From NCBI GenBank assembly GCA_963712745.1, contig CAVQJC010000002.1:1-64000 (forward strand): a stretch of 64,000 bases of DNA. Reading direction: 5' to 3'. Made by a program: the position numbers and the translations under genes. Source of the DNA: an uncultured Chloroflexia bacterium (GTDB taxonomy: Bacteria > Chloroflexota > Limnocylindria > Limnocylindrales > CSP1-4). Shown here in pieces: positions 9,278 through 9,730 of the stretch (the stretch's first letter is position 1; each line of letters opens with the position of its first letter). The notes beneath the pieces are model-generated. The model worked only from the letters and a program-made list of their open reading frames with translations. It ran no database searches and was not told the origin of the DNA.

Positions 9278-9730
9278 CTACGAGCCGGCGGGCTTCGCCA
9301 CGAGGTCGGGCCGGAGGTCGGCGGCGTCTTCCTGCAGGATGCCCGAGACGACCTGCAAGCGGCGGCCCATGCCTGTGCCCTCGCTCATCTTCATGGCCGA
9401 CAGGCAGGCGCCCTCGGCCGGATCGGGGAGCGCGAAGACGACTCCGTCCGCGTCGCAGGCGAGCAGCGCCCCCACACACATGGGACAGGGCTCGACCACG
9501 CAGAAGATGGTGGTACCGGCGAGCGAGTGACGGCCCAGCCGGGTGGCCGCTTCGCGCAACGCGATCATGACCGCGTGGGCGGTGGGGTCGCCGGTGTTGG
9601 CCACGGCTTCACGCCCGTGCGCGACCATGGCCTCGTCGAGGACGGCCACGGCGCCGTTGGCGCGTTCGCCGGAGCGGCGGGCCTGGGCGGCTTCCGCCAG
9701 CGCGGCGCGCATATAGAGCTCGTAGTTCAT
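9278..9730 (-). CDS. TadA-like nucleoside deaminase fold protein lacking the catalytic Glu (HAV)
   Basis: YMRAALAEA, DPTAHAVMIALREA, EPCPMCVGAL; sits at the tadA position next to tRNA-Ser/ffs. Confidence 0.88.
   Translation of the reverse strand: MNYELYMRAALAEAAQARRSGERANGAVAVLDEAMVAHGREAVANTGDPTAHAVMIALREAATRLGRHSLAGTTIFCVVEPCPMCVGALLACDADGVVFALPDPAEGACLSAMKMSEGTGMGRRLQVVSGILQEDAADLRPDLVAKPAGS

Follow-up and report, generated by a model that had tools for sequence, protein, structure and literature searches.

The tadA orthologue in the 64-kb window (the whole stretch of Limnocylindria DNA that we analysed) encodes valine where TadA has its catalytic glutamate, and purifying selection constrains this Glu-less gene to the same degree as the housekeeping genes around it. 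On balance, we lean towards the view that the lineage dispenses with inosine in decoding CGN codons and that its TadA, catalytically dead, is retained for a non-catalytic role.

The window gene and its locus

The gene, the codons of its active site and its neighbours are as follows.

9278..9730 (-): Glu-less tadA orthologue (P0001), 150 aa, predicted CDA/TadA fold, H-A-V replacing H-A-E
9569..9571 (-): Val54 codon GTC, at the position of the proton-shuttle Glu in H-A-E
9572..9574 (-): A53 codon GCG, read from the sequence
9476..9577 (-): zinc-ligand codons (H52 CAC 9575-9577; C82 TGT 9485-9487; C85 TGT 9476-9478)
9139..9224 (-): tRNA-Ser(CGA) (ARAGORN; Rfam tRNA, 55.6 bits), 53 nt downstream of the tadA stop on the same strand
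6973..7060 (-): tRNA-Ser(GGA) (ARAGORN, Rfam), member of the conserved tadA-tRNA-Ser-ffs-dnaX block
6655..6921 (-): SRP RNA (ffs), large bacterial type (Rfam RF01854, 184.1 bits)
5151..6572 (-): dnaX, clamp-loader tau/gamma (Pfam PF13177, 1.4e-33, plus PF22608 and PF12169)
3851..4525 (-): recR (Pfam RecR domains), last gene of the conserved block by which the tadA locus is recognised
9884..11098 (+): phosphofructokinase, pfk (Pfam PF00365, 1e-61), divergent and upstream; context, outside the system

The original prediction for this DNA described an intact ORF that keeps the Zn ligands of TadA and has GTC (Val) as its catalytic Glu codon, and all three points hold. The interval 9278-9730(-) translates without a stop to 150 amino acids beginning with MNYELYM, and the start methionine is identical in all 27 intact Limnocylindria orthologues. 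The minus-strand reading gives GTC at position 54, where HMMER aligns the query residues 'ahav' under the 'ahae' of solved TadA structures (best match 7cph_A, E = 1.3e-21). To our knowledge, the proton-shuttle Glu at this position of H-A-E is present in every active TadA. The codons of the zinc ligands H52, C82 and C85 were read directly, and these residues are invariant among the 92 sequences of alignment A1 and conserved at 100% in every group compared. Judged from its sequence, the window protein probably binds zinc and probably dimerises as TadA does.

The gene had also been placed at the usual tadA locus, beside tRNA-Ser, ffs and dnaX; all of these were located with ARAGORN, Rfam and Pfam, and recR was found as well. 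The gene order in B. subtilis is yaaJ-scr-dnaX-yaaK-recR (PMC10454642). The window order, tadA-tRNA-Ser-tRNA-Ser-ffs-dnaX-recR, matches that of the yaaJ locus and thus identifies the window gene as a tadA orthologue. tRNA-Ser(CGA) occupies the equivalent position in 26 of 29 Chloroflexota loci, the other three being short contigs, and the pfk neighbour is conserved in L003, L019 and L027-L029. A promoter and terminator scan of positions 8900-10000 returned nothing useful.

The window protein matches Pfam PF00383 at 2.1e-18, with a deaminase domain that covers residues 1-114 or more, and scores 92.9 bits against the NCBIfam TadA model NF008113, below the equivalog cut-off of 150. Its AF2 model (pLDDT 91.9) superimposes on six bacterial TadA structures in Foldseek with TM 0.92-0.93 and rmsd 1.2-2.2 Å. 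The predicted structure belongs to the helix-4 division of CDA folds and ends in TadA-like helices, the last of which is short in the model (residues 133-139). The C-terminal domain of ADAT3 (7nz7_B) also matches the window protein (E = 6.3e-10, TM 0.84). The ESM Atlas has no entry for P0001 or P0008. No informative domain fusions were found among the homologues, P0146, P0129, P0140 and P0274 consisting of the deaminase domain only. One further homologue, P0152, looks chimeric.

Conservation and selection in Limnocylindria

The conservation of valine was followed in two deep Limnocylindria (Chloroflexota) subclades, represented by the best 120 homologues of each; wherever the sources give any name, these are called Chloroflexota or Ca. 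Limnocylindrales. Val occupies the Glu position in 120/120 best homologues of the window protein and in 120/120 of the second subclade, and H, V, C and C are all retained in 240/240, with HAE in none. The two subclades have this signature in common even though they are only about 50% identical. Among 28 nucleotide sequences the Val codon is GTC in 20 and GTG in 8. Since valine is found in every homologue and is written with two different codons, a read error, which had been judged unlikely at the outset, can be dismissed.

Selection on the gene was compared with that on its neighbours. The median dN/dS of the tadA orthologue, with the window measured against 14 shared loci, is 0.133, and the same 14 loci give 0.114 for recR, 0.089 for the N-terminal part of dnaX and 0.227 for pfk. 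Over all 378 pairs the tadA orthologue has a median of 0.20 and a maximum of 0.49, so the typical values (0.13-0.20) are not near 1. Of the 29 Chloroflexota loci, 27 have an unbroken ORF; the other two, L028 and L029, have frameshifts. L028 has frameshifts in dnaX and pfk too, which makes assembly errors their likely source. The L029 tadA has two frameshifts beside an intact pfk and may be a true pseudogene, the one such case among these loci. A pseudogene or sequencing error as the general explanation is rejected by the universal valine, the use of both GTC and GTG and the neighbour-like dN/dS.

Substitutions at TadA-specific positions

TadA is recognised by the EVPV motif, an Asn in strand 2, the TLE motif, a basic residue after strand 4 (Lys111) and a Phe in the C-terminal helix (PMC3239186, PMC3711424). 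At these places the window protein has ERAN, Glu41, VVE, Ala105 and LRPDL. The changes of EVPVGA to ERANGA and of G-x-N to GRE had been noticed from the sequence, and alignment to 106 Glu-bearing representatives, in which positions 23-25 are V (85%), P (97%) and V (81%) and position 41 is N (97%), supports them. They are general in Limnocylindria: ER(A/P)x stands in place of EVPV, E or D in place of the strand-2 Asn, and the basic residue equivalent to Lys111 is missing. Of the Glu-bearing representatives, 85/99 have a C-terminal aromatic motif, which was found in 0/119 and 2/120 of the Limnocylindria proteins. Like the zinc ligands, the DPTAHA and EPCxMC motifs do not vary.

Across three Glu-less groups, V23 is replaced by R in 98%, 119/120 and 74%, and N41 by E/D or His in 97%, 120/120 and 98%. 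Such patterned, non-random substitutions at positions 23 and 41 could reflect a re-wired rather than a dead active site. A simple rescue, in which the Glu of 'GRE' is the catalytic Glu migrated to a new place, is weakened by alanine at position 41 in L019, L020, L021 and L023 and by histidine there in a second clade. An ADAT3-like C-terminal cap formed by the conserved residues R140-P141-D142-L143 is unlikely to be general, the second Limnocylindria subclade having F-A-A-x instead.

A second Glu-less clade in Omnitrophota and Planctomycetota

TadA homologues that have lost the Glu also occur in an Omnitrophota/Planctomycetota clade, where none of 120 homologues of the L031 protein carries it. 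The position is T in 49, A in 42, V in 16, I in 5, L in 3 and S, M or P in 1 each, and 2 further sequences did not match the motif. This clade retains the zinc motifs, and it is here that position 41 is His. A quick tree required at least 3 state changes and nested the Omnitrophota/Planctomycetota clade inside Glu-bearing TadA (SH-aLRT 93 and 97), whereas grouping all Glu-less sequences in one clade was not rejected by an AU test (p = 0.44); the two clades may have arisen independently or from a single origin.

tRNA-Arg genes near Glu-less tadA

Most bacteria are described as having tRNA-Arg ACG and lacking GCG (PMC8007984). The tRNA-Arg genes visible near Glu-less tadA are GCG in 7/7 and ACG in 0/7. 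Five are from Limnocylindria (L019, L022, L023, L025 and L026), 0.9-8 kb upstream of the gene; the other two lie 6 nt (L030, Omnitrophota) and 15 nt (L031, Planctomycetales) upstream. The sequences and cloverleaf of these tRNA-Arg(GCG) genes were checked. ARAGORN found no tRNA-Arg gene in the 64-kb window, none was present within 10 kb of tadA in the closest relatives L002-L018, and neither the window nor any of 35 loci, which represent a small part of each genome, showed an A34 tRNA. Extrapolating from the more distant Limnocylindria loci that have tRNA-Arg(GCG), we infer that this tRNA is present, and A34 tRNAs absent, in the genome to which the window belongs. A search for the E. coli tRNA closest to tRNA-Arg(GCG) gave a single uninformative 'tRNA-OTHER' match, in 1/5,426 genomes.

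CGA makes up 10.7% of the Arg codons in 41 window ORFs. Reading of CGA requires I34 or tRNA-Arg(UCG); no gene for the latter was seen, a point against inosine-free decoding. In Mollicutes, Spirochaetes, Thermotogae and others, the loss of I34 is described as coming with the disappearance of tRNA-Arg(ACG) and the acquisition of GCG/UCG (PMC3711424, PMC6063277, PMC8007984), and in B. subtilis TadA is dispensable (PMC10454642).

Proposed retention of TadA after the loss of its substrate

We propose that the tRNA-Arg reading CGU and CGC in Limnocylindria carries G34 (anticodon GCG) in place of A34, a replacement that would leave TadA without a substrate. The protein would then have lost its proton-shuttle Glu (now Val54) and most of its anticodon-loop contacts, while its fold and H/C/C zinc site would have persisted under purifying selection. 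Loss of the catalytic Glu together with selection on the fold and zinc site points to a pseudo-deaminase, a putative zinc-bound, TadA-shaped protein with a role that does not involve adenosine deamination. The retained role would most likely be structural or RNA-binding. The repurposed tRNA-binding protein of the original prediction is possible; the known anticodon-loop contacts (strand-2 Asn, Lys111 and C-terminal Phe) are absent from the Glu-less proteins.

More tentatively, TadA in general may have a second, deamination-free role, for instance in reading or chaperoning RNA hairpins such as the anticodon arm of tRNA-Arg. Selection would have preserved this role after the change from A34 to G34, and the Glu-less state would have evolved in two phyla or more (Chloroflexota and Omnitrophota/Planctomycetota). 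If this were true, the rise of these proteins, which share the loss of Glu54, the change of Val23 to Arg and that of Asn41 to Asp, Glu or His, would mirror in bacteria the way in which ADAT3 came into being.

It is also conceivable, if unlikely, that the zinc site is still catalytic and that the acid/base function has moved to Asp/Glu41 in Limnocylindria or to His41 in Omnitrophota/Planctomycetota. Arg23 would shape a new pocket, and the substrate would be another base or the G34 of tRNA-Arg(GCG). In both clades the changes at positions 54 (non-acidic), 41 and 23 occur together, and the invariant zinc ligands, DPTAHA and EPCxMC, the housekeeping level of purifying selection and the tight linkage to tRNA-Arg(GCG), with gaps of 6-15 nt in L030 and L031, are all consistent with a working enzyme. 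Pseudoenzymes with migrated catalytic residues are moreover a recognised class (PMC10211241). However, mutation of the proton-shuttle Glu (E73A) nearly abolishes ADAT2 activity (PMC8216470), and position 41 is alanine in four of the loci (L019, L020, L021 and L023). The RNA-contact residues are gone, and position 54 drifts among T, A, V, I and L in the second clade, as expected where a site no longer matters. We know of no CDA-fold enzyme that functions without the H-x-E Glu.

The original prediction had named the protein an ADAT3/Tad3-like pseudo-deaminase and suggested that it was a dead partner for a second, active TadA, perhaps with expanded A34 editing. The first half of this stands in part, in that the protein is a TadA orthologue that has kept its zinc site, lost its Glu and stayed under purifying selection, while no ADAT3-like N-terminal domain accompanies it. 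The second half, in which the Val protein would heterodimerise with a Glu-bearing TadA encoded elsewhere and either maintain tRNA-Arg editing or broaden A34 editing, we consider quite improbable. ADAT3 has indeed replaced E by V while retaining its zinc ligands (PMC8216470, PMC3239186), its C-terminal domain matches in sequence and fold, TadA is a dimer that could in principle accept a paralogous partner, and the CGA codons in use would be decoded by I34. Against this, G34 in 7/7 tRNA-Arg genes implies loss, not expansion, of the classical substrate, and neither an A34 tRNA nor, among 3,213 ORFs, a second CDA-fold ORF was found in the window and 35 loci. Any active copy would need to be additional, since the Glu-less gene occupies the ancestral tadA locus. 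Among 1.84 billion representatives, the closest protein with the Glu (P0136) is only 43% identical, which gives no sign of a recent duplication in the style of ADAT2/ADAT3. The protein is also a deaminase domain only, at 150 aa.

Least probable is a functionless, decaying remnant kept by chance or by constraints acting on the DNA or on how the downstream tRNA-Ser genes are transcribed: the substrate is apparently gone, many functional motifs are missing and 2/29 Chloroflexota loci have frameshifts, but dN/dS lies within the range of recR, dnaX and pfk, the ORF is intact in 27/29 loci, the frameshifts of L028 point to assembly errors, H, V, C and C are kept in 240/240 homologues, and two subclades that are about 50% identical share the signature.

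Comparison with known systems

Bacterial TadA (E. coli TadA, B. subtilis YaaJ) has the same fold, zinc ligands, DPTAHA and EPCxMC motifs, size and ffs-dnaX-recR locus, and likewise no extra domain. The window protein differs from it in having Val for Glu, in having lost EVPV, the strand-2 Asn, the Lys111 equivalent and the C-terminal aromatic motif, and in its sub-threshold NCBIfam score; the neighbouring tRNA-Arg of its relatives has G34, not A34.

ADAT3/Tad3 is likewise derived from TadA and has likewise exchanged Glu for Val. His and two Cys hold zinc in ADAT3, in a pseudo-active site without tRNA recognition determinants (PMC8216470). The predicted site of the window protein resembles it in both respects, with zinc ligands kept and tRNA recognition determinants lost. 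ADAT3, however, has a large N-terminal tRNA-binding domain and a C-terminal Asp/Pro cap over the zinc pocket, and functions only with active ADAT2, on up to eight A34 tRNAs, whereas the window protein has no extra domain, and the window and 35 loci hold neither a partner nor an A34 tRNA. The change from Glu to Val in Limnocylindria is independent of that in eukaryotic ADAT3, and the lineage serves as a natural parallel, among bacteria, for how the ADAT3 pseudo-subunit arose.

Inosine-free lineages (Mollicutes, Spirochaetes, Thermotogae and Campylobacter/Helicobacter), which have tRNA-Arg GCG plus UCG, are reported to have lost tadA. Limnocylindria share the tRNA-Arg G34 with them, as seen in relatives rather than in the window itself (and in L030 and L031 outside the class), but tadA stays in place, its chemistry probably lost and purifying selection persisting. 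A high-GC, free-living lineage thereby joins the short list of those apparently decoding CGN without inosine. A dead enzyme under housekeeping-level selection beside a G34 tRNA-Arg raises the testable question of a non-catalytic TadA function.

Our full-text literature search found no description of a TadA homologue from bacteria that lacks the catalytic Glu. TadA is treated as near-universal and single-purpose, and surveys infer inosine capacity from the presence of a homologue. In an entire class of bacteria that abound in soil and freshwater, and in a second clade belonging to a different superphylum, the homologue present cannot be classical TadA, and homology surveys and automatic annotation would call such genomes TadA-positive, overstating the spread of I34. 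The homologues are annotated as 'tRNA(adenine34) deaminase' by JGI and as 'nucleoside deaminase' by NCBI.

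A tadA gene with valine in place of the catalytic glutamate

The gene under study is an intact open reading frame of 150 codons, and its product, P0001, carries a CDA zinc-binding domain (Pfam PF00383, 2.1e-18). The only good NCBIfam match is the TadA equivalog (92.9 bits, under the curated cut-off of 150), and the closest solved structures are bacterial TadA enzymes (best 7cph_A, 1.3e-21). The H-A-V of P0001 aligns exactly with the H-A-E of solved TadA structures. Codons H52 CAC, A53 GCG, V54 GTC, C82 TGT and C85 TGT were read directly from the window DNA, bearing out the original prediction of GTC (Val) at the catalytic Glu in an intact frame with the zinc ligands kept. 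The replacement of EVPVGA by ERANGA and of G-x-N by GRE was seen in alignments, and the earlier description of the gene was correct in every checkable detail. A confident AlphaFold2 model built from a 92-sequence alignment (pLDDT 91.9) superposes on six bacterial TadA structures with TM 0.92–0.93.

Features of the locus
9278–9730, minus: Glu-less tadA (P0001)
9139–9224, minus: tRNA-Ser(CGA), downstream of tadA
6929–9097, plus: mechanosensitive channel gene of the MscS family (Pfam PF00924, PF21082), located between tRNA-Ser(GGA) and tRNA-Ser(CGA)
6973–7060, minus: tRNA-Ser(GGA)
6655–6921, minus: SRP RNA
5151–6572, minus: dnaX
3851–4525, minus: recR
1–3346, minus: rRNA operon with spacer tRNA-Ile(GAT) and tRNA-Ala(TGC), about 6 kb downstream of the tadA locus

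This order matches yaaJ(tadA)-scr-dnaX-yaaK-recR, reported for B. subtilis (PMC10454642), and the gene is therefore a tadA orthologue and not a stray paralogue, at the usual tadA locus beside tRNA-Ser, SRP RNA (ffs) and dnaX, as had been predicted. Upstream lies a divergently transcribed phosphofructokinase gene (pfk). The downstream rRNA operon arrangement is common to 17 Chloroflexota loci. The two tRNA-Ser genes are also about 2.1 kb apart in six loci of our genome scan (L007–L009, L013, L027 and L028) and 30–200 bp apart in other relatives; the MscS-family gene looks like an insertion within one sublineage. Its listed start at 6929 overlaps tRNA-Ser(GGA), so the true start is probably further downstream.

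Conservation of the valine and selection on the gene

A single scan of species-representative genomes yielded 35 loci, 29 of them from Chloroflexota MAGs with a common gene order, several titled Candidatus Limnocylindrales. Of these 29, 27 have an unbroken frame encoding DPTAHAV; L028 and L029 hold frameshifted copies (around 10001–10450). Assembly indel errors are the apparent source of the breaks in L028, where dnaX and pfk are likewise split across several frames; in L029 pfk is intact, and that copy may be a genuine pseudogene. In the protein collections, Val occupies the catalytic position in 120/120 best homologues of P0001 (71–100% identical). The same holds for 120/120 homologues of P0124, representative of a second Limnocylindria subclade that is about 50% identical to the first and whose members, where named, are assigned to Chloroflexota or Ca. 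Limnocylindrales. The HAV first noticed in the window is thus conserved in relatives. Among 28 nucleotide sequences, 20 use GTC for this Val and 8 use GTG. One Limnocylindria HAV protein, P0505, lies on a 3,678,338-bp contig (NCBI, ENA), apparently a closed genome. P0152 (289 aa), in which a YicC-like N-terminal region is fused to a fragment of the Glu-less deaminase, sits on a long branch of the tree and is likely to be a chimeric or frameshifted prediction.

Decay of the gene would bring dN/dS near 1. The window gene gave 0.12–0.40 against 27 orthologues, and all 378 pairs had a median of 0.20 and a maximum of 0.49. Fourteen loci allowed all four genes to be measured; there the median was 0.133 for Glu-less tadA, within the range of recR (0.114), the N-terminal part of dnaX (0.089) and pfk (0.227). 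Although these ratios are rough, as dS is near 0.7–1.2, the gene is under constraint like its housekeeping neighbours.

Loss of other TadA features

In a comparison of the Glu-less groups against 106 representatives that bear Glu, the V-P-V of EVPV is missing from the Limnocylindria proteins, with Arg23 in 98% of the first subclade and 119/120 of the second; the strand-2 Asn (position 41) is Glu/Asp in 97% and 120/120. The basic counterpart of E. coli Lys111 is absent, and the C-terminal aromatic motif is found in 0/119 and 2/120, versus 85/99 Glu-bearing representatives. DPTAHA, EPCxMC and the zinc ligands are invariant in the 92-sequence alignment. Iyer et al. (PMC3239186) and Yokobori et al. 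(PMC3711424) list the lost features as TadA-specific or as anticodon-loop contacts. Judged by its residues, this would be a retained tadA stripped of its chemistry and most RNA contacts.

Codons of the two altered positions in P0001
9662–9664, minus: position 23
9608–9610, minus: position 41

Both Glu-less clades, that of Limnocylindria and a second one described below, have Arg for Val23 and an ionisable residue for the strand-2 Asn (Glu/Asp in Limnocylindria, His in Omnitrophota/Planctomycetota). The correlated substitutions might form a plug stabilising the empty pocket; a re-wired catalytic site is the less likely reading.

A second Glu-less clade and the number of origins

Three loci from other phyla in the same scan also have HAV, namely L030 of Omnitrophota, L031 of Planctomycetales and L035 of Planctomycetota. 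In the first two, the Glu-less tadA lies among tRNA-Ser genes and dnaX.

Tight tRNA cluster of the second clade
L030 9900–10542 and L031 69–2208: Ser-CGA, Ser-GGA, Arg-GCG, Glu-less tadA, Ser-GCU; then dnaX

Glu is absent from the catalytic position in all of the L031 protein's 120 best homologues (68–100% identical); the residue there is T in 49, A in 42, V in 16, I in 5, L in 3 and S, M or P in one each, two sequences being unmatched by the motif; the remainder of the protein is highly conserved. Arg23 is present in 74%, His41 in 98% and the C-terminal aromatic motif in 0/120, while the Lys and the G-S of the RNA-binding loop are retained. Two homologues carry the NCBI name Candidatus Omnitrophica. 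L031 also has an ORF with LAGLIDADG-like motifs between Glu-less tadA and tRNA-Ser(GCU), and L030 a small GIY-YIG-like ORF ahead of tRNA-Arg.

An alignment of P0001 with the 150 best representatives and ten locus proteins (161 rows) has 110 Glu, 48 Val, 1 Pro, 1 Ile and 1 gap in the catalytic column. A quick ML tree was made, with this column masked, from the 144 rows that cover 110 or more of the 124 core columns and retain the complete set of three zinc ligands. Thirty Val rows form one group (SH-aLRT 94), and the Omnitrophota/Planctomycetota group is nested within Glu-bearing TadA (SH-aLRT 93, 97). With the separate placement of the database protein P0240, at least three changes of state are needed. 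A single Glu-less clade is not rejected by the AU test (p = 0.44). Both groups sit at the ancestral tadA locus in their own phyla, which we read as favouring parallel loss of the catalytic Glu.

tRNA-Arg anticodons and the role of the protein

As a general rule, bacteria are reported to have tRNA-Arg(ACG) and lack GCG, with Thermotogae and Spirochaetes named as exceptions (PMC8007984). All seven tRNA-Arg genes in view beside Glu-less tadA are GCG and none is ACG. Five belong to more distant Limnocylindria loci (L019, L022, L023, L025 and L026), 0.9–8 kb upstream and usually paired with tRNA-Ser(GCU), their sequences and cloverleaf having been checked; in L030 and L031 only 6 and 15 nt separate the end of tRNA-Arg(GCG) from the tadA start codon. 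The three Glu-bearing loci of the scan, from Bacteroidales, would have served as a matched control but have no tRNA-Arg nearby. The 64-kb window holds no tRNA-Arg, and a G34 tRNA-Arg in its own organism is suggested by these relatives.

The original prediction likened the protein to ADAT3. The Glu-to-Val change with a retained zinc site is indeed shared with that subunit (PMC8216470). Unlike ADAT3, P0001 has no N-terminal domain; neither a second CDA-fold partner nor an A34 tRNA is in view in the window and the 35 loci, and the nearest Glu-bearing protein among the best 150 representatives is only 43% identical. The simplest account is that P0001 would be the pseudo-deaminase of an inosine-free lineage: tRNA-Arg(ACG) would have given way to GCG, wobble inosine would have gone, and TadA would have been kept. 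Such a loss of wobble inosine, with GCG (and UCG) replacing ACG, is reported for Mollicutes, Spirochaetes, Thermotogae and Campylobacter/Helicobacter, together with loss of tadA (PMC3711424, PMC6063277, PMC8007984), whereas here the gene is retained and constrained. TadA is reported to be dispensable in B. subtilis (PMC10454642). No description of a Glu-less bacterial TadA was found in the literature outside subscription journals and supplements.

CGA makes up 10.7% of Arg codons in 41 window ORFs and, in an inosine-free lineage, would call for a tRNA-Arg(UCG) as its reader. The L019 order of tRNA-Arg(GCG), GT87-like gene, pfk and Glu-less tadA mirrors window 9278–12008; at the place of the tRNA the window has an unrelated ORF, just past its GT87-like gene.

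12055–13944, plus: 629-codon ORF (GC3 0.88, no Pfam match)
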